A DNA stretch of 64,000 nucleotides, taken from the NCBI RefSeq assembly GCF_036971445.1, contig NC_091471.1:289168001-289232000 (forward strand), read 5' to 3'. How positions within the stretch are numbered: the first letter of the stretch is position 1; each line of letters opens with the position of its first letter. This stretch comes from Narcine bancroftii (Eukaryota). The notes under the pieces were generated by a model, which saw nothing but the letters and a program-made list of their open reading frames with translations, had not been told where the DNA came from and did no database searches. Of the stretch, positions 5,647 through 42,515 are shown piece after piece. A program made the translations under genes and the position numbers.

Positions 5647-5715
5647 GGGAGTTTGTCGCCGTTAGGGTCGCTCAGTCTGAGACTGATGGTAAAATCATGC
5701 ATGAACTACTAAATT

Positions 5716-6375: not shown

Positions 6376-6698
6376 TCAGCAGCTGGAATGTGCGACTGTA
6401 GCGGACGTTGCCGAGGCAGCTCCTTGTTGAACCGTGCAGGAGTACACCTTGCCTCTGCTCCAGTCTGTGCCGGGCACCTTCAGGTAGCTGCTGAGACTGA
6501 AGGTGTTGTCCTTGTTCCGCATCGCCGGGCTGGTTTCCACCCCCGTCCTCGCCGGACTCCAGTCCACGGTCCAGCTGACGGCGGGGAAGCCCAGCGACAG
6601 TTTACTGACCAGGCAAACCAAGGTGCCCGCTCCTTGAGCGGAGATCTCCTCGGAAGACGGCCCGAGCAGTTTCAATGAAGGTTCGGGGAGATTCTCAG
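6376..6698 (-). CDS. Ig light chain (sigma-type) constant exon, cluster 1; open reading frame
   Basis: Acceptor ttcccatttcAG, phase 1; (A)ENLPEPSLKLLGPSSEEISAQGAGTLVCLVSKL...VSWTVD...FSLSSYL...VYSCTVQ...SSC*; C1-set Cys/Trp/Cys plus the terminal interchain Cys. Differs from the cluster 3 C by V>L, G>W (VDW vs VDG) and Q>H. Confidence 0.93.
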
Positions 6699-7594
6699 CT
6701 GAAATGGGAACAAGAGAAACATTTCAGGTCACGGAAGAACTCGGCTAATTTTAGAATTTGGCACAAGCGCGAGGCAGATGGAGATGGATCCAAACACGTG
6801 TGAGATTTTGCACATTGAGAGATCAAATGTGTCCACTGAAGGACGGGTCACATCAGCATGGATCCAAGATGCTGCCTGAATTCGAGGTTTAATCTACGAG
6901 GGATGGGAGAGGTTTCTTTTCTCTTCTGCTTGAGAGATTGACGGGGTAATTTAGGAGTGGTACAGGTCGTTTGGAAGATGAGGTCTCATCCTCTGGATTA
7001 ATAAAAAAGTGAAAGGGAAGAGGACACGAGTTTAAAGTGAAGGGGGGATTTTGAAGGAGACGCGCTGGGCGAGTTGACTTTTATAGAGCAGTGCGTGTCT
7101 GGGATCGTGGAGAAGCAGCTATCAGACAAATGTTTAAGAGTGGGTTCAAGACACAAATTGAAAGGAAAGGAGGAACGGCTTCCATCATGTACATTCATTT
7201 GAAATCTCATCTCGTTCCGTGCAGACGTCGTGGGCCGAAAGGTCGAATTTAGTGCCACGCCGTTCTGTATTCGATGGAAAGATGAATCGTTAGCGTCTGA
7301 AACACAATATTGATGAGCCCATCTCAAGGACAACGCAAAAGGGCCCGATAAATATCACAATTTAACATTACGGGCTCATTTAAGGTGAATCAAAAATCAC
7401 ATTTGAATGAAAAATTGTCAATAAATGTGGGTGACAATTCCCCGAAAACCCTGGAGTAGAACTGGCGCTGGACACGGAATAGGATTCGTTTGTCAATCAA
7501 CATTTTCAGAAGGCAACAACCTGGAAATGATTCATTGTCAGGTGTCTGTAGTAGAGCCGTCGGTCACGGCAGGAGGATGTTGCCAGACACTGAC

Positions 7595-7631
7595 CTGGAA
7601 CGAGGAGCTTGGTCCCTGGGCCGAACACCCA
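7595..7631 (-). CDS. Unrearranged IgL J segment, cluster 1 (WVFGPGTKLLVP)
   Basis: FGxG motif; splice donor G/GTCAGT; immediately preceded by a heptamer. Confidence 0.9.
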
Positions 7632-7670
7632 CACGGTGCGAGGTTCCAGCCTTCAGTCCGTGCGGTTACG
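7632..7670 (+). promoter_or_regulatory. J-side recombination signal sequence (23-bp spacer position), degenerate nonamer
   Basis: Heptamer CACGGTG (6/7 to CACAGTG) abuts J; after 23 nt the sequence is GCGGTTACG (3/9 to ACAAAAACC). Confidence 0.65.
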
Positions 7671-7984
7671 CAGGGCCCTGAATCAGGCAGAAAGACGCGG
7701 TCAGACGCTCCAGGAGCAGCAGGAAACCAGACTACACACATCCCGCGTGTCCCAGCTGGGGTGGGGCAGGGAGGGGTGAACTCACAGCCCCTTCGCCTGC
7801 TTGGAATTAACCGGCAGCAAGAGCCGGCAATGAACGGCGGGGTTGGGAATTTTCCCAAATCTGAAATGATTGGAATTGGAAAATACTGCATAAAAGGTCA
7901 AACGGAAGTTAATTAACGAGAAGTGAAATATTAAAATGTTTTCTCCCGGGACAAAGATGTGAAGTGGATGGTGCTGCAGCTCCC

Positions 7985-8012
7985 AGTTTCTGTTTGACCG
8001 CCTCTGGCTGTG
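7985..8012 (-). promoter_or_regulatory. V-side 12-RSS
   Basis: Minus strand CACAGCC - AGAGGCGGTCAA (12 nt) - ACAGAAACT directly after the V coding end. Confidence 0.88.
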
Positions 8013-8223
8013 ACACCAAGTATTGCTCGATGAACCCACTTCCCGCAGTGATAGACGGCGGCGTCCTTCACCTCCACCTGGTTGATGAGCAACCGGTAAA
8101 CGGTGGCCGCGCTGTTGCCATTCGCCAACTGCATCGTCCCGATGTTACATTCCAGCGTGGCGCTGGATCCCGCATTCACGGACACGCGAGACAGAGGTTG
8201 AGACAGAATCTGCGAGTCTCCAG
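8013..8223 (-). pseudogene. Unrearranged IgL sigma V pseudo-segment, cluster 1
   Basis: Paralogous to V2/V3 but with a net 117-nt in-frame loss of CDR1-FR2-CDR2, a 3-nt net insertion in FR1, YYC>YHC, and a 1-nt deletion after CGKW. Confidence 0.9.
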
Positions 8224-8327
8224 CTGAAAAAGAGCAGCAATTCCACATTAATCAGTGACCCTTGACTGCGAGCCCGAGAGCCCACATCAGAAACCGCTGG
8301 CGGGGCAGAGTTGCCGCCTGTACTTAC

Positions 8328-8373
8328 AGCCCAGCCACAGCGCCAGAGACCAGAGAAAACACAGCGTCCGCAT
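8328..8373 (-). CDS. IgL leader exon, cluster 1 (MRTLCFLWSLALWLG)
   Basis: ATG, hydrophobic signal peptide, phase-1 donor T/GTAAGT, 104-nt intron to the V acceptor. Confidence 0.9.
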
Positions 8374-9190: not shown

Positions 9191-9502
9191 TCTTTGAAGA
9201 GTTCAATTCAATCGAAATGTGAGGATGAAATCTGGTCTCATCGTGTGAATCGTGGAACTACGGGAAACATTGGAAGATGTTATTCTCCCATTGCATGGGG
9301 AAACCTCCCATCTTTACCCAGTGTTTCCATTCCCACCCCATGCCCTAACCTTCTGTACTAGGAGTGATTTACAATCACCAATAGAATGACCTCACCCATT
9401 TCCTTGCCAGTGACAGCCATATTCTCTGTTTGCCTAGCATAGCAGCATCTGGGGTAATGCTCTTGGAATATCAGTATCAACCACATAGGTAGAAAGGTAA
9501 CA

Positions 9503-9660
9503 AGGTGGTGCAGTGACACAAATGATAGACACTTGCTCACAGTTACAGTGACCCAGGATCAAACCTTAAAACACAGGGATGTTTGCACTGAGTTTACAAA
9601 TTCTCCCTGTGACTGTGTGCATTTCCTTCAGCTGTTCCAGTTTGCTCCCACATCCTAGGA
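9503..9660 (+). mobile_element. Degenerate tRNA-derived SINE (V-SINE/HE1-like); paralogous copies near 13655-13830 and 39634-39795
   Basis: A-box-like ggtggtgcagtg followed by the gagttt...ttctccctgtgactg..tttcc...ccagttt.ctcccacatcc core typical of fish/shark V-SINEs. Confidence 0.6.
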
Positions 9661-10289
9661 TTCACTGCTCCAAGTTATTCCCAGTCCAAGGATGATCAGT
9701 GGGATGTGCAGGAAGTTGAAGGAATGAGGTGAAAATGAAATGAGATTTAATGAGGGTTTGTGTAAGTATGTTCTTGATGAACCCAGTGGGCCAAAGGGCT
9801 TGTTTTTGAACTGCATATTTCCAAACTCCCAAAATTCATGAAGGTAGCGAGGAGGTTAAAATGGAAGATCAGTGATGGTACAGAAAACATAGAACATGGT
9901 GCAACACAGGAACGGGCCCTTCTGGACATGATACATGTAGCATACAGGATCCACAAATTAAACTCAAATTCTGCTGCATTACAAGATACATATCATGTTA
10001 TTCCCTACTTAATGTGTTTATCGTGAAATGCCTTGAACACTGCCATGGTAATCCCTGGATTACTTCCCTGCTTCACTTCAGAGGGTTTAGTTAAAGGGAA
10101 GATCATGCAAACTTATATTTGTTTGATGCAAGGGGTTAGATCAGTTGGGGATGAGTACCAGATCAGGGAGAGATGCAGTCAGCCCAGGCCAGTACCTCAA
10201 CAGAGCTTGGGCCAGAACCCTCACAGGAAATCTCACTGCTGCATGAGGAAAGGTTTCAGCCAGTTTGTTGAGGAATGAGAACAGGAAGG

Positions 10290-10342
10290 TCACACAGATG
10301 ACGGCCCGAGCAGTTTCACTGAAGGTTCGGGGAGATTCTCCG
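10290..10342 (-). CDS. Truncated IgL C exon, cluster 2: (A)ENLPEPSVKLLGPSSV*
   Basis: Intact acceptor identical to cluster 3; identity to C stops at ~10300, then unrelated sequence provides TCT GTG TGA in frame. Confidence 0.85.
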
Positions 10343-12410
10343 CTGAAATGGGAACAAGAGAAACATTTCAGGTCACGGAAGAACTCGGCTAATTTTAGAA
10401 TTTGGCACAAGCGCGAGTGAAAGGTTCCAGCTTCCTAGAGTGGGGCCCAGGGTCTCACCGATGGGCCGGGAAGGGTCCATGGACGAGTCCGTTTGCAAGT
10501 TATCATTGAACGTTTTGTTTTCTGATTCTTTTAGCGACTCCCTGGTTCACAAAACAACCCTCTGGGTCACTGCGCTGCCACCTCCCAGGGCCCATCCCGA
10601 CCTGTCTCACATAAACAGCAGGAGACTTCCTCAGGGTCGCTTCACGTGGCCTCAGCACCTCTGGTCAGTGACGGAAGAGAACCATTAACCAACTTCAGAG
10701 CATCAACCAGTGGTCGGAAGCGGCCCTTCGCTCGCCCCACCCTTCACTAGTGCCCCCACTGAGCCACCCAAGGTGAGAGCGCGAATCAACCCCTCTCCCC
10801 CTCCCTCCCCCCGACCTGCCCGGTGGGCGACGACGCCAGATGCGCGGTCCTGAGCTTCACGGTCGCCATGTGATCACGTCTCGGGATTCAAGTCGCACTC
10901 ACTGTGGGACCAGAGGATGCGGGATTCTCCCCACAGCCCGACCTACGGCCTCAAATGGTGCAGCGACGTGAATCGCTGAGTGGACGAAAGAAGGAGATCC
11001 CAATGGAATAGATGGCAGGAGAAGAGAAATACAGGGCAAGGAGAGACATTTTTATTGGGTGGGAACCTGCAGCAGACTCCCATCGTCACTGCGACGACTG
11101 GAGATTCGCTGCAAGTCTGAGGGAGGTTCCGCTGGAGGGACCCAGCGCAACAACTGAAAGCGCATCCTTCATCTGTGTTGCTGACCGTGGCCAGTCTTCA
11201 ATCGACATGGTCTTTCGGACACTTTAGAAAAGCGTCACCGCGTGCACACACTTGAACCGAACCAGCAGGAAAGCCGACAAACTAAGGGGAAAGAATCCAC
11301 GGGAACTCATTCAAACCTGCAGTGTGCCTCTCTATAACGATAGAGGGAGGATTGAGGATGATGGGTAGATTCCGAGTTGCTGAGAGTTCAACTCAATGAT
11401 GGAACAGGACGCACGAGTTACAGATGCGGGCGGAGAAATGGCAGATCCAGTTTAATCCAAACAGCTGGGAGATTTGGCACATTGGAGGGTCAAACGTATA
11501 CAGTCAATGACGGGGCTTTTAACCGCGAGGATGTCCAGAAGGATGTGAGGGTGCAATTCACAGTTGGCTGAAAGTGGCCCTGCAGGTGGATCGGGTGGCG
11601 GCGAGGACATGTGGCAGGCTGCCTTCATCGGTCGAGAGGTGTGGGGAAGTCATGTTTCCCGCTTTGGGGAGGACTGTGTGCAATTTTCCTCGCACAGGCA
11701 GGATGTGGGTGTGTTGGAAGAGGGGGCAGAAAATATTTCCCAAGATCCAGCCTGAATTAGAAATTCTGAGCGACGAGAGATGGGACAAAGTTGCCTTTCT
11801 TTTGCTCTCTTCTGCTTGCGAGATAAAACGGAGAGGTACAGGGAGGTTGGTTAATGGGATCTCTTTCCCTGGGTAAAATAAGAGGATATCTATTTAAAGT
11901 GAGGGGTGGCTATTTGAGGAGTTGTACTGGGCAAGTTTATATTTACAGGGTGGCAGGTGTCTGGAACGCGGGGCCCGGGATGGTGAGAAACAGATACATC
12001 GCGAATGCTAAAGGGGGCGGGGGGTTCAGAGAGACACAAAAGGCCAGGAATGGAGGGACGACACGGATCGAGTGCAGATTCTGTTTCATTTGGCGCCTGT
12101 TTTGGTGCCGCACTGTTCGACAATATGAATGACTTCTCAGGGATAGGACAAAAGGACCCCAGAAAGAGCATTAATTAGCAGAACGGGTCCATTTAAGGGT
12201 TATTAGAAAATCTCAACTGTCCACGAAAAGTTGTCATTAAATGTCGGTGACAATTCACCAAACCCCATGGAGTCGAACTGGCGCTGGACACGGAATAGGA
12301 TCCGTTTGTAAATCAACATTTTCAGGAGGTGACAACCTAGAACTGATTCATTGACCTGGGTCTGGAGTAGAGCCGTCGGTCATGGCAGGAGGATGTTGCC
12401 GGACACTTAC

Positions 12411-12767
12411 CTGTAACGAAGAGTTTGGTCCCTGGGCCGAACACAAAAGTATTGCTCGTCGAAAACCACTTCCCGCAGTAATAGACGGCGGCGTCATTCA
12501 CCTCCACCTGGTTGATGATCAACCGGTAAACGGTGCCCTCGCTGTTGCCATTCGCTGTGAAACGGTTGCTGTTGAATCCGGGTCCGTAGCTCGGGGTACC
12601 ATAGGAGTAATAGTGATAGAGGATCCACTGCAGATGTGTTCCCGGAGTCTGTTTGTAGAAGCTCAAATAATAGCTGTCCTTGGTCCCGATGTTACATTCC
12701 AGCGTGGCGCTGGATCCCGCATTCACGGACACGCTCGGAGGTTGATACAGAGTCTGCGAGTCTCCAG
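12411..12767 (-). CDS. Germline-joined IgL sigma VJ exon, cluster 2
   Basis: 357-nt phase1-phase1 exon: (S)GDSQTLYQPPSVSVNAGSSATLEC...FYKQ...YGPGFNSNRF...DAAVYYCGKWFSTSNTFVFGPGTKLFVT, donor G/GTAAGT; no RSS between V and J; long CDR2 typical of sigma. Confidence 0.93.
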
Positions 12768-12871
12768 CTGAAAAAGAGCAGCAATTCCACATTAATCAGT
12801 GACCCTTGACTGCGAGCCCGAGAGCCCACATCAGAAACCACTGGCGGGGCAGAGTTGCCGCCTGTACTTAC

Positions 12872-12917
12872 AGCCCAGCCACAGCGCCAGAGACCAGAGA
12901 AAACACAGCGTCCGCAT
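12872..12917 (-). CDS. IgL leader exon, cluster 2
   Basis: Same MRTLCFLWSLALWLG leader with a GT donor. Confidence 0.92.
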
Positions 12918-12996
12918 CGTTGCTGCCCGTCACCTTCCTGCCTCCCTTCACCGCTGTGTCTGGGACAGACTGTGGCGACGCTGCGGATGGAACCCA

Positions 12997-13037
12997 CTTA
13001 TAGAGACATTGGCACCGGGAAGGAAATCCATGCAAAT
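12997..13037 (-). promoter_or_regulatory. Ig light-chain promoter, cluster 2
   Basis: ATTTGCAT at 13030-13037 and TATAAG at 12997-13002. Confidence 0.85.
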
Positions 13038-14149
13038 CGGAGCAAGTCACACTGACCAACCAGAGGAAGGACCTGAAACCCTCCCATTCGCCGTCAGTTG
13101 CCGTCCGCTGGAGGCGGTGACACGGTCAACATCCGACAGATGTGGAGAAACAAGGGGCAGGTGGTTCATTGTCTGAAATTTCCCACTTTCTCCCTGCATT
13201 TCCCTGATTCCGCTGAATACCGCTCTCCATCCCTCACCCAGAGATGCCCCTCACACCTCCAGTGATAATAAGGTGGTGCATTGAAGGCTTCCCATTTGAA
13301 CAGTTCAGACTCTGGGCTCAAACATACCCTGATAATTGAAGGATTTCAATTTAGTCAAAATGTGAGGATGAAATCTGGTTTCACGTAGGGCCCAGGAAAC
13401 ACTGGAAGATTCATTCTCTCTGTTTGGAAGGACCTCTCCCATCCCTACCCAGTTTGTCTATATTTCCATTCTCACAACATGCCCTGAACTGTCTGCAACT
13501 ACCAATAGACCACCCTCACCCATCTCCTCCAGGAACCAAATGTCAGCCTTGCCAGTGACAACCACATTCCCAGGTTTCCTGGAATCGCAGCATCTGGGGC
13601 AATGCTCTTGGAATATCAGTATTAATGACCGAGGTAGAAAGGTGTTGAGCTCCTGGGTGGTGTAGTTTCAACAGCTGATGGAACTGCTGGCTCACGGTTA
13701 CTGTGACCAAGGATCAATTGTGACCCACGGTGCCGTGGGCGCGGACATTACACGTTTTCCCTATGACTGTGAATTTCCTTCAGCTGCTCCATTTTCCTCC
13801 TGTATTCCAAGACGTGGTTGGGTAGGTTAATTCACTGCTGTATATCATCCTTAGTCCAAGGATGATCAGTGGAATCTTCAGGGAGTTCAGGGAATGAAAT
13901 GGGATTTGAAGGTTTGAGTATGTTTTTGATGAACTCATGGGAAGTCTCACTGGGCCATGAGGAGAGGTTGTAGCCAGTTTGTAGGGGAATGAGCACTGGA
14001 AGGTTGCACTGAAAGGGGAGCAAATCCATTAGGAGAGATATGTAATTCCAGACAAGAAATATATTTTTTCAATTCTGACCAGAATGTGCAGGATACTGGA
14101 TTTGAAGTTCATGTGTATTAAAGGAAGAAGCCTATGAGAACATACTGTT

Positions 14150-15570
14150 GAACTGCAGATGCATTTAAATACATAGGTTAAAAAAAAAACTTTTTGGCAT
14201 TGCTGACCGTGTTAAATAAAGACAGGGAAGATTGGTGTACTTGTGGGAATAATGTGCCTTGTGATACCTGCTGTTAGTTGCTCAAGCCTCATGTGCATAA
14301 GCAAGGGTTATGGCCGTCTGGTGGATCATAAGCTTTATGCCAATTATTGATGCACTGCTCTTCCAATACCCTTTTCCTTTTCACTCAAAATGTGTGCTGT
14401 CTCATCAAAGGCAGTGGTAACTTTATCATTGGTAGCTGTGTTCACTGACAAGTTGTTGCACAGATGTAGAAAGAAGTCTTGTTTTGAGGATTGGAAGGTT
14501 GATGGAGGAAATTAATCTCATGGATATTGAGATACTTTCTTGAATGAAAGCATCAACAATGACATTCAGGCATCTGCCAACTGTGTAAATATGCAAAATC
14601 AGCAAAGGGATATTGAATACTGAGATTTGTTTGGATTTGTTCTGGACAGCTGTTGTCCTCCTAACAGATTTCTCTTAGCTGTCGGGATTATTTCCACACC
14701 TGTGAAGATTGCTGAAGATGAAATGCATCATTGCATTTACCAAGAAAGATTGGTAAAATTTGCAGTAAGAATGCAACTTTATTTGACATGGGTCTTCACA
14801 AAGAAAGATCTTGTTGTGGATGTTTTATGGAGCAAATGTAAAATGGTGAAGAATTACAATGGAAGCCATTTTTGTGAATGGTGTTCCATGGACCTTCCTG
14901 ATTGATGAGGTTAAAGGCTATGGTGAGGTTTATAAAGGCAATGTATATTGTATGGTGACTGGTGCTGATCTCTGAATTTTCCTTGGAGTTTTTGCACAGT
15001 GAAGATCTTGCCCTCTCTGTCCCTGGATGGACAACCATCACTGTGAGCAGCTCTGTGGTTACTGGAATAAAGTGGACCCTTATGATACCTGACCTGAGAC
15101 AGTAAGCTTGGATATCCCTCTATCACAATTAGGCATCTTTGGGACCATCTGTGTCTGTGACCATTTCAAGTTCAGATTAGCAAGAATATTGCACTGTGTC
15201 AGAATGTCCTCGGGCATTAAAAGAACCGAATCTGGCCCCTGCGCAACCCTATGCATCCTGTCTTCCTCTCTGCACTCTGTCTTGAAGATTGCTTTGGACC
15301 CAGATCATCAACCATTCTTTTTCTTCTGCTATGGCCTCTTGTCTTAGATTTCCCTGTTGTGAATGGTGGTGGACAATTAAACAGTTGACTGGAGGAAGTT
15401 CAAAACCCATCCTCTTGCTGTGCAGTGGTGTGGTTTTGTATGTGAGTGCTAAAGACAAGATTAAAACATTCACAACAATGTCCAGTCAGAAGTGACGAGT
15501 GGGTGATCAGTTTGATTTCTGCCCAAGGTCCCTTCCATCGCAGAAACTTGTCTTCAGTTAATTCAATTGA
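14150..15570 (-). mobile_element. Degenerate RTE-clade LINE fragment
   Basis: YIAFINLTIAFNLINQEG.WNTIHKNG resembles the RTE RT motif YMAFIDLTKAFD.V.REGLW. Confidence 0.7.
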
Positions 15571-35647: not shown

Positions 35648-35970
35648 TCAGCAGCTGGATTGTGCGACTGTAGCGGACGTTGCCGAGGCAGCTCCTTGTT
35701 GAACCGTGCAGGAGTACACCTTGCCTCTGCTCCAGTCTGTGCCGGGCACCTTCAGGTAGCTGCTGAGACTGAAGGTGTTGTCCTTGTTCCGCATCGCCGG
35801 GCTGGTTTCCACCCCCGTCCTCGCCGGACTCCCGTCCACGGTCCAGCTGACGGCGGGGAAGCCCAGCGACAGTTTACTGACCAGGCAAACCAAGGTGCCC
35901 GCTCCTTGAGCGGAGATCTCCTCGGAAGACGGCCCGAGCAGTTTCACTGAAGGTTCGGGGAGATTCTCCG
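35648..35970 (-). CDS. IgL sigma constant exon, cluster 3 (intact)
   Basis: Acceptor AG; (A)ENLPEPSVKLLGPSSEE...TLVCLV...VSWTVDGS...YSCTV...SSC*. Confidence 0.95.
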
Positions 35971-38014: not shown

Positions 38015-38371
38015 CTGTAACGAAGAGTTTGGTCCCTGGGCCGAACACAAAAGTATTGCTCGTCGAAAACCACTTCCCGCAGTAATAGACGGCGGCGTCA
38101 TTCACCTCCACCTGGTTGATGATCAACCGGTAAACGGTGGCCGCGCTGTTGCGATTCGCTGTGAAACGGTTGCTGTTGAATCCGGGTCCGTAACCCGGGG
38201 AATTATAGGAGTGATGGTGATAGAGGACCAACTGCGGATGTGTTCCCGGAGTCTGTTTGTAGAAGATAACAGCATAGCCGTCCTTCGTCCCGATGTTACA
38301 TTCCAGCGTGGCGCTGGATCCCGCATTCACGGACACGCTCGGAGGTTGAGACAGAGTCTGCGAGTCTCCAG
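38015..38371 (-). CDS. Germline-joined IgL sigma VJ exon, cluster 3
   Basis: QTLSQPPSVSVNAGSSATLECNIGTKDGYAVIFYKQ...YHHHSYNSPGYGPGF...YYCGKWFSTSNTFVFGPGTKLFVT; canonical splice sites; no RSS. Confidence 0.95.
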
Positions 38372-38475: not shown

Positions 38476-38521
38476 AGCCCAGCCACAGCGCCAGAGACCA
38501 GAGAAAACACAGCGTCCGCAT
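38476..38521 (-). CDS. IgL leader exon, cluster 3
   Basis: MRTLCFLWSLALWLG with a GT donor. Confidence 0.93.
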
Positions 38522-39325: not shown

Positions 39326-40569
39326 TCTTTGAGGAGTTCAATTCAAACGAAATGTGAGGATGACATCTGGTCTCATTGTGTGAATCGTGGAACTACAGGA
39401 AACATTGGAAAATGTTATTCTCCCATTGCATGGGGAAACCTCCCATCTTTACCCAATGTTTCCATTCCCACCCCATGCCCTGACCTTCTATACGAGGAGT
39501 GATTTACAACCACCAATAGAATGACCTCATCCATTTCCTTGCCAATGACAGGGGGGTTGCCTGGAATAGCAGCGTCTGGGGTAATGCTCTTGGAATATCA
39601 GTATCATCCACATAGGTAGAAAGGTAACCACCTAGGTGGTGCAGTGACACAGCTGATGGAGACACTAGCTCACCGTTACAGTGACCCAGGATCAAACCTT
39701 AAAATACAGTGATGTTTGCACTGAGTTTACAAATTCTCCCTGTGACTGTGTGCATTTCCTTCAGCTGCTCCAGTTTGCTCCCACATCCCAGGATTCACTG
39801 CTCCAAGTTATTCCCAGTCCAAGGATGATCAGTGGGATGTGCAGGAAGTTGAAGGAATGAGGTGAAAATGAAATGAGATTTATTGAGGGTTTGTATATGT
39901 TCTTGATGAACCCAATGGGCCAAAGGGCTTGTTTCTGAACTGCATATTTCCAAACTGCCAGAATTCATGAAGGTAGTGAGGAGATTAAAATGGAAGATCA
40001 GTGATGGTATAGAAAACATAGAACATGGTGCAACACAGGAATGGGCCCTTCTGGTCATGATACATGTGGCATACAGGATCCACAAATTAAACTCAAATTC
40101 TGCTGCATTACAAGATACATAACATGTTATTCCCTACTTATTAATGTGTTTATTGTGAAATGCCTTGAACACTGCCATGGTCATCCCTGCATTACTTCCC
40201 TGCTTCACTCCAGAGGGTTTGGAGAAAGGGAAGATCATGGAAACTTATATTTGTTTGATGCATGAGCAAAGGAGGTAGATCAGTTGGGGTTGGGGACCAG
40301 ATCAGGGAGAGATGCAGTCAGACCAGGCCAGCACCTCAACAGAGCTTGGGCCAGAATCCTCACAGGAAGTCTCACTGCTGCATGATGAGAGGCTTCAGCC
40401 AGTTTGTTGAGAAATGATAACAGGAAGGTCACACAGCAAATGAGCAAATGTGGTAGAAGAGCTATGTGGTTCCAGAACAAGAAATATATCTTTCTATCAA
40501 GAGCACATTAAGCATGAAACTAGTTTTGAAATGCATGTGTATAAACAGAGAAGAAAATAAGAACATTGT

Positions 40570-42505
40570 CACTGAACTGCAGGTGTAATGAGTACTTTTT
40601 TTTAATATGATCTATTTTGACCTTTGGGACTCCATTCAATAAAGACTGGGAAGACGGGTGTATTTTGTGGAAATGATGATGGTATTTGTGCTGTCCCCAG
40701 TGATACCTGGTGTTAGTTGGTCAGGTCTCATGTGCAGATAGTAAGCAAGGAACATTGGTGTCTGATGGGCCATGAGCTTCATGCCATAGTTGATGCCTTG
40801 CTCTTCCAATACTCTTTCAAACAAAATTTATGCTGGCACATCAAAGGCAGTGGTAACTTTATCATTGGTTCGTGCGTTCTCTGACACATTGTTGCACAAA
40901 TGTAGAAAGAGGTCTTGTTTTGAGGATTGGAAGGTGGATAGAGGATTATTATCTCATGTATGTTGACTACAAGGTTCAAATTCCTGAATGAAAGCATCAG
41001 TAATGACGTTCAGGCATCCACTGAGTAGTTGTAAATACCAGCAAAGTCTGCAAAGGGAGATTGAATACAGAGATTTGTTTGAATTTGTTTTGGAGAGCTG
41101 TGGTCGTCGTAATAGATTTCTCTGAGCTGTCACGATTATTTGAAGGGAATTATAGAAAGGGATAAAGATGATAGGTACTGAAGTTGGAAGATCGATTCCA
41201 TTGATAGAAGACAGGACTATTGGCTGTGAAAGAGTGACATCGAGAACAATTCAACCAGTGAGAGTCATTCAAAACTGATGGGGTGAGGCTCAGGGACAAT
41301 GTGCTCCTGCAAATGTGAAAGTTACCTTGCCATTCGTTAGAGAAGCATATATAAAGGAAGCTTGTATGTAACTGAAATTGGAGCCTCACTTGATGAGTGC
41401 TAACAGTGCACCACACAGACGGAATGTAAAGTAGAAATTAAGCGGGCAAAGAAATGCACTGAAACAGAATCAGGTCAGATTCAGAATTTATTGTCATGAT
41501 CATGTCACAAAATTTGTTGTTTTGCAGTACCATTACAGGTGCAAAATTGCTATAAATTAACATTTTAAAACATTAGTGCAAAAAGTAGAGAAAAGAGAGG
41601 TTCATTCTGTATTTTAATTTCCATGAAGGTTGTTGGACATTAAATGCATCATTTCTGCAAGAAAGATTGGTAAAATTTGGGGCAAGAATTCAACTTTTTA
41701 TTTCATGTGGATTTTTACAAAGAAAGATCCTGTTGTGGATATTTTGTGGAGCAAATGTAAGATGGTGAAGAATTTCGATGCAAGCCATTTTTGTGGATGG
41801 TGTTCCATAGCCCCTCCTTATTGATGAGGTCAAAAGGTTTGGTGAGGTTGAGAAAGGCCATATATGGTGACTGGTGCTGCTTTCTAAATTTTCCTTGGAG
41901 TTGTTGCACAGAAGATCATGTCTTCTTTGCCTCTGGATGGACAGCTATCACTGTGATTTGGTGAGCAGCTCTATGGTCACAAGATAAGGTGGTTGAGGAG
42001 GACCCTTATGAGACTTCCCCTATAACAGTAAATTAGGATACTCCTCTATCACAATTGGGTGTCTATGCGTCCATCAGTGTCAGTGGCCATCTTCAAGTCC
42101 AGATATTCAAAATTATAGCACAGTGGGTGAGGATGTCCTGAGGCATTAAATAACAGAATCGGTCCCCTGCCCAATCCTTCCTCTCCTATCCGCCTTAGAT
42201 TGCCTATATCTTCTCTGTACTCTGTCTTGAGGATTGCTTCTGACCATTGACCGTTAATTTTCTCCCGCTATGGCCTTTTGTTTTAGATGTATCTCTTTTG
42301 AATGGTGGTGGACAATTAAACAGTTGACTGAAGAAGGAGGTTCAAAACACATCCCCTTGCTGCAAAATGGTGGGGTTTTGTATGTAAGTGCTAAAGACAA
42401 GGTTGAAACATTCACAGCAATGTCCAATCAGAAGTGACGAGTGGGTGATCAGTTCATTCCACCCAAGGTCTCTTCCATCGCAGAACCTGGTCTTCAGTCA
42501 ATTCA
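40570..42505 (-). mobile_element. Degenerate RTE-clade fragment, paralog of 14150-15570, with an internal insertion (~41140-41610)
   Basis: YMAFLNLTKPFDLINKEGLWNTIHKNG; colinear with the 14-15.5 kb block. Confidence 0.7.
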
Positions 42506-42515
42506 AACGATAGGG

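Follow-up and report, generated by a model that had tools for sequence, protein, structure and literature searches.

On balance, we read V2 and V3, two germline-joined light chain genes of the electric ray Narcine bancroftii, as old duplicates that have been homogenised by gene conversion, with selection likely keeping their CDR1-CDR2 region different. Their distal flanks are about 20% diverged whereas the genes are 97% identical, and an old duplication followed by conversion is therefore the likely history. The contrast between a variable exon and a near-identical intron, for which an initial annotation had offered diversifying selection, localized conversion or germline hypermutation, is mostly the product of conversion between old paralogs. 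That the divergence peak has persisted is most likely due to diversifying selection on the CDRs.

A germline-joined sigma light chain locus

The window, meaning the whole 64,000-nt stretch of DNA that was analysed, corresponds to C8:289168001-289232000 of N. bancroftii. The translations of V2 and V3 agree letter for letter with NCBI models of this species, and the chain is an Ig sigma light chain. It is 67-69% identical over 241 residues to the named sigma records P0062/P0066 (nurse shark, horn shark), named sigma chains are the top similarity in both V and C, and other light-chain-like V genes of the same genome reach at most 43% identity. Identity to the sawfish chain XP_051894291, which carries the label IgLS in a part of PMC12227049, is 75%. 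CDR1 and CDR2 align with those of the named sigma chains without gaps, and CDR2 is longer than in solved lambda-type chains; a long CDR2 with a short CDR1 marks sigma, and a passage of PMC5985310, where isotype names and CDR lengths are given, puts that CDR2 at 9-10 residues. A homolog search restricted to V-domain lengths gave no match at E<=1e-25. The conserved FR2 tryptophan is a phenylalanine in V0, V2 and V3 (window 12660, 38264), likewise in four sawfish paralogs, gar and coelacanth.

In V2 and V3 the V and J segments are fused in frame in genomic DNA without an RSS between them, which makes them germline-joined, while the split paralogs retain an RSS with a 12-bp spacer. The initial annotation spoke of two joined genes; both are indeed joined, but a third, V0, lies 19 kb outside the window (C8:289149061-289149417). 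The assembly thus has six copies: V0, V2 and V3 are joined, and three are split, with CDR1 and CDR2 deleted. They sit in an inverted duplication of about 150 kb (C8:289099000-289245000) with blocks that are 89-98% identical: V0 and V3, each with a split pseudo-cluster, mirror each other on the arms, and V2 and the third split pseudo-cluster occupy the single-copy middle. The features of the window are as follows, all on the minus strand.

12411..12767, V2 germline-joined VJ exon: open frame, both cysteines, no RSS; the same as the V portion of NCBI model P0001
12872..12917, V2 leader exon: identical across all six locus units
12661..12693, V2 CDR1, codons 25-35: four residue changes and one silent change against V3
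12622..12633, V2 FR2 changes L45, W47 and I48, from the V2-V3 alignment
12580..12615, V2 CDR2, codons 51-62: five residue changes against V3
12535..12549, V2 FR3 loop, codons 73-77: three residue changes against V3
10343..12410, V2 J-C intron: V0 unit closer than V3 unit
10297..10342, truncated 46-nt C exon belonging to the V2 unit: a stop ends the frame after 17 residues; fused to upstream sequence of V3 type
10297..13277, tract of the V2 unit homogenised by conversion: from -360 to +2620 relative to the ATG, with about 99% identity to V0/V3 except in the V core
13340..15566, distal 5' flank of V2 outside the converted tract: aligns collinearly with the V3/V0 flank, with 17-21% mismatch; low-copy where tested (13400-14470)
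38015..38371, V3 germline-joined VJ exon: five private changes, all in CDR1/2
38476..38521, V3 leader exon
35648..35970, C exon of the V3 unit, intact
39332..42506, V3 distal 5' flank: homologous to 13340-15566
7594..8373, split (unjoined) pseudo-cluster: leader; V without CDR1 and CDR2; 12-bp RSS at 8012-7985; J without recognisable nonamer
6376..6698, C1, open C exon of the pseudo-cluster: spliced to V2 in NCBI model P0001

Outside the window, 90-107 kb upstream, lie sigma C exons that are older and broken, together with a remnant of a promoter flank, but no V (C8:289060908-289066503, 289076022-289076860). Further joined light-chain-like VJ exons of other isotypes occur at C12:447000-1391000 (four copies, about 43% identity) and at C9:203.5-204.6 Mb.

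The locus resembles the elasmobranch Ig sigma (type IV) light chain in sequence identity, long CDR2 and organisation in V-J-C clusters. It differs in that the three intact V genes that the assembly yielded are all joined in the germline and have the same CDR3, and in that its split clusters are pseudogenes. Section 5.1 of PMC5192425 lists joined genes for lambda, sigma-2 and kappa and does not list sigma, and a passage of PMC4279169 says that in the non-lambda isotypes split genes occur alongside joined ones. Lee et al. 2000 (PMC2193156) propose that the joining is done by RAG in germ cells. Neither joined sigma genes nor this locus turned up in our literature search, though they may be described in supplements or in the primary papers on sigma (Criscitiello and Flajnik 2007; Iacoangeli 2017). 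With all intact V genes found in the assembly joined, a single junction, and three split copies that lack CDR1 and CDR2, the sigma isotype may have no junctional diversity in N. bancroftii.

How V2 and V3 differ

The V2 exon (12767-12411) and the V3 exon (38371-38015) differ at 21 of 357 nt, which affects 17 codons and 16 residues; a single codon change is purely synonymous (ACC/ACG at codon 28). Leader, CDR3 and J are identical, and over about 2.07 kb the J-C introns show 14 substitutions (0.7%) and two indels. These counts agree with those made initially. Exon and intron differ strongly in the density of V2-V3 differences (p=8e-10), and 14 of the 21 exon differences fall within the 69 nt of CDR1+2 (p=1e-6). 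The clustering of replacements that had been claimed for CDR1, CDR2 and the FR3 loop is real, but seven of the 16 residue changes lie outside CDR1/2: under Kabat-like CDR/FR boundaries chosen in this analysis, nine belong to CDR1/2, three to FR2 (L/P45, W/L47, I/V48), three to the FR3 loop and one to FR1. Across V0, V2 and V3 the exon has 25 variable sites, 16 of them private to V2, five to V3 and four to V0. Two adjacent pairs of substitutions separate V2 from V3; such pairs occur in the introns as well and are uninformative.

Do these differences carry an excess of replacements? About three quarters of random changes are replacements, and codon-path counting makes 2-3 of the 21 V2-V3 changes silent. 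The resulting pN of 0.070 and pS of 0.029 (ratio 2.4) correspond to a binomial P of 0.08-0.20 without transition bias and 0.04-0.14 with it. A dN/dS comparison, proposed initially as a check, gave an omega of 2.3-3.0 for the pair in a codon model (p 0.22, 0.095), which is not significantly above 1. Maximum likelihood on all three genes yielded 3.0-3.9 (p 0.086 and 0.028), a value that leans toward new adaptive change and against our reading. For CDR1+2 alone omega was 1.7-2.5 (p 0.46, 0.20), and outside CDR1/2 all eight changes among the three genes are replacements, with no silent change (p 0.048, 0.032). There is thus a lean toward a replacement excess, but a weak one, and it is weakest in the CDRs. 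Tanaka and Nei reportedly described positive selection on the CDRs of germline V genes in 1989; the concentration of replacement differences between paralogs in the CDRs is the same here, with the difference that CDR dN/dS is not significant and three genes are compared.

Probable old paralogs homogenised by gene conversion

Upstream of about -420 the V2 flank is collinear with those of V0 and V3, and over four blocks out to -2650 V2 and V3 are mismatched at 388 of 2062 aligned columns (17-21%; JC 0.19-0.24), compared with 54 of 2028 columns for V0 and V3 over three of the four blocks. The shark rate in the abstract of PMC10587355, 7e-10, is per generation and so yields no age for the duplication. 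At -360 the identity between V2 and V0/V3 rises abruptly, from roughly 80% to roughly 99%, and stays there to +2620, with the exception of the V core. The boundary is sharp: 26 V2-private sites fall in the first 100-nt bin and 0-3 in each later bin, except for 12 in the CDR bin. From the diverged flank and this jump it follows that V2 is likely an old paralog homogenised by conversion. Genome searches with one stretch of the V2 distal flank found matches in only three other places, all in the sigma locus; with a second stretch, long matches were again in the sigma locus and those elsewhere were short and weak.

Conversion is pervasive across the units of the locus. Along the V2 unit the closest relative changes: V2-private to V3-private sites stand at 26:6 up to codon 77 and at 5:11 beyond (p=0.001, breakpoint chosen post hoc). 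The split clusters are mosaics relative to V3, at about 97% from promoter to FR1, 99% in C and 64-80% in J and intron, and share a 9-bp promoter insertion and intron letters with V2. The 0.7% intron difference is therefore no measure of the age of V2, and with flanks and CDR3-J homogenised, the exon/intron contrast overstates the replacement rate. The initial annotation had conceded that recent conversion of the flanks alone might explain the contrast. This largely applies, but the concentration of differences in CDR1/2 remains.

Within the core, the level of CDR replacement between V2 and V3 (about 12/51 sites, 22%) does not exceed the divergence of the flanks (p=0.37). Had conversion left the core untouched throughout, about 6.9 silent differences would be expected, and 2-3 are observed (P 0.03-0.08). 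There are too few, so either some conversion inside the core, as by short tracts between the codons that were retained, or some new replacement is required. V3 and V2 have a two-base Y55 codon in common, where V0 has W55 as in gar, coelacanth and teleost sigma, which suggests a possible V2-V3 micro-conversion at codon 55. A hidden donor for the V2 CDRs, for which a genome search had been advised, was not found: DNA and protein searches of the assembly recovered only the three joined and three CDR-deleted split copies and C remnants (at -101 kb and -107 kb), and no copy holds the V2 CDRs.

Likely selection on the binding loops

A possible sequence of events begins with repeated conversion, which would have copied promoter, leader, frameworks, CDR3-J and intron between units. 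Tracts overwriting the binding loops would have been disfavoured, leaving a divergence peak as in the red/green opsins. After the truncation of its C exon V2 probably drifted too, which would account for its odd framework residues.

The younger V0-V3 pair offers a cleaner test. Eight of its nine exon differences lie in CDR1+2, and 8/69 nt there compares with 2.7% in the flanks (p=0.0007), a rate 4-5 times faster, while the exon outside CDR1+2 is more alike than the flank (1/288, p=0.011). The same CDR bias against unconverted flanks thus gives independent support for selection. The initial suggestion of diversifying selection has support from the CDR1/2 clustering and from V0-V3 CDRs that exceed their flanks 4-5x (p<0.001), and not from the pair dN/dS, which is not significant.

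Divergence peaks that survive conversion are treated as a signature of selection in a passage of PMC3924837, with the opsins as example. Exon 5 of the human red/green opsins, as presented there, shares with V2 and V3 the old neighbouring genes, homogenised introns and a narrow peak where function lies. In the ray that peak covers the CDR1-CDR2 region of an antibody, one partner has a broken C exon, and the genes compared are paralogs. The replacement pattern itself is already known: in joined type I (sigma-2) light chains of the skate Raja erinacea, differences lie preferentially in CDRs and replacements exceed neutral changes (Anderson et al. 1995, PMC2192082, abstract). Both systems combine joined genes with CDR-biased, replacement-rich differences; the skate isotype is another one, with at least 89 clusters compared with three joined genes here, and its abstract is silent on conversion. 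That abstract also describes the skate genes as expressed and "potentially somatically mutated"; joined light chains can mutate somatically, and the initial description of V2 and V3 as fixed receptors is doubtful.

Neutral decay or a recent burst as rival readings, and the family background

A neutral history is unlikely in our assessment. It holds that conversion homogenised the flanks, that the diverged V core blocked the tracts mechanically, and that V2, once its C exon had been cut, decayed as a pseudogene, with no need for diversifying selection on V2. The C stub of 17 residues fits such decay, as do the non-significant CDR1+2 omega and a CDR replacement level equal to flank divergence. 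So do the residues Y7, L34, L45, T57 and E76 of V2, which occur in 0/69 shark and ray homologs. L45 replaces a near-invariant proline (48/49 batoid and 20/20 shark homologs) that aligns with the proline of human lambda FR2; position 45 belongs to the VH/VL interface. The suggestion that V2 itself was under selection is weakened by these five residues, which decay fits equally, and a neutral heterology barrier may mimic selection on V2. Yet V2 retains its open frame, both cysteines, splice sites and promoter, its silent differences are few for an old island, and the 4-5 fold excess of the V0-V3 CDRs over their flanks is left unexplained. Moreover, model P0001 joins V2 not to its own truncated C but to the open C1 of the neighbouring pseudo-cluster, which could serve it. 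Part of the change in V2 may nevertheless be decay, with its truncated C exon, lost FR2 proline and no AID signature.

The diversifying selection of the initial annotation would correspond to a recent burst, which we think quite unlikely: one long recent copy would have put a V0-type joined gene over the old gene of V2, and strong positive selection would then quickly have fixed about 15 replacements. V2-private sites number 16 in the exon and 4 in the intron (p=1e-10), silent changes are few, and the eight changes outside CDR1/2 are all replacements (p 0.03-0.05), as such a burst would predict. Against it, the switch of closest relative along the unit and the insertion and intron letters common with split clusters need several exchanges, and the C exon of V2 is broken. 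At residues 33, 47, 48 and 77 V2 carries the family-majority residue, so some differences may have arisen on the V0/V3 side.

How unusual are V2 and V3 for their family? Among 20 of 27 non-overlapping homolog pairs with C differing by at most 6% (19 elasmobranch and one teleost, from gene models, with 10 flawed or redundant records left out), differences amount to 143/455 in CDR1+2 (31%), 137/1417 in FR (9.7%), 53/160 in CDR3 and 56/2096 in C (2.7%). With 9/23 in CDR1+2 (39%) and 7/71 in FR (9.9%), V2 and V3 are at the family norm, and only their identical CDR3 stands out. V0 matches sawfish P0004 at 12/16 variable sites, and CDR1/FR2 of V2 resembles that of some sawfish paralogs. Trans-species CDR types were considered and dropped: the best match of V2 agrees at 8/16 variable sites, and a protein tree of the core alone, built from 68 sequences over 35 columns after 12 flawed or redundant records had been removed and with no close relative included, kept V2 with V0/V3. 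FR2-CDR2 of V0, whose letters dominate the contigs described below, is nearly identical to that of gar, coelacanth and teleost sigma, which suggests deep conservation rather than diversification.

Possible germline hypermutation

AID-type hypermutation in the germline as the source of the V2/V3 differences is very improbable. RGYW/WRCY are the hotspot motifs of AID, and the hint comes from V3: its private G/C changes (codons 35, 56 and 59; window 38195-38270) lie 3/3 on the mutable base, compared with 7/38 such bases in the CDRs (p=0.004; 0.014 with a wider motif), a post hoc result among about six tests with n=3. The five V3-private changes in 69 nt are also more than the flanks would predict (P 0.003, or 0.04 with V3 credited with the entire flank divergence), and transitions outnumber transversions 7:2 between V0 and V3. 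V2, with 16/25 variable sites, tells otherwise: only 1/12 of its private G/C changes lies in a hotspot (p=0.72), its changes are mostly transversions, and no V2-private change occurs in the 500 nt that follow FR3, a stretch within the expected range of untargeted hypermutation. Hotspots also coincide with contact residues, so selection can mimic the signal. Of the hypermutation proposed initially, the hint in V3 is what is left. A bolder scenario is a long shot: the whole sigma isotype would depend on one germline-made VJ joint spread by conversion between 20%-diverged clusters, with heritable AID hits in V3 CDR hotspots partly replacing the lost junctional diversity.

Transcript contigs and use of the C exons

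Contigs of four runs from one study (X1-X4), which we guess to be RNA although none is recorded as such, contain spliced leader-V and J-C joints and have exon-restricted depth. Unspliced intron contigs carry private letters of the V0 unit where covered (4/4 in X2 and X3, three in X1, two in X4), and a sterile transcript contig carries 6/6 letters of the split copy at -67 kb. Among 32 of about 5550 contig pieces listed there is no V2-specific piece, no cover at 9408-10295 and no listed J-to-C1 joint, and such contigs can neither show absence nor rank genes. An assembly artefact that made V2 or V3 a false duplicate or an erroneous consensus is hardly credible: the contigs do carry V0-unit letters at diagnostic sites, with none specific to V2 or V3 identified, but the flanks differ from unit to unit (by 2-3% and by about 20%), the differences are clustered, in frame and free of stops, and there is no N in 184 kb.

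Transcripts of the split pseudo-cluster (window 7676-8071; X1, X4) show cryptic GT-AG splicing across the RSS interval. C1 (6376-6698) is open with Gly to Trp, Val to Leu and Gln to His changes, and its poly(A) signal lies near 5650, past a 3' UTR insertion. One low-depth contig (6.3) of X4 has six extra changes in 280 nt beside J (window 12129-12409), as somatic hypermutation of a joined gene would give, and is a candidate for it. Somatic hypermutation from contig counts was dropped, with thousands of variant contigs also over the C exon, possibly high-depth errors.

Implications

The locus adds a clear anatomy, in which an old flank gives way at a sharp boundary to converted sequence and divergence peaks over the binding loops. 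For elasmobranch Ig clusters, then, introns that are nearly identical are no basis for dating or calibration. The electric ray may be a case in which every intact sigma gene is germline-joined with a single CDR3. If the hotspot signal of V3 were also seen in other alleles, it would point to an action of AID on antibody genes in the germ line.
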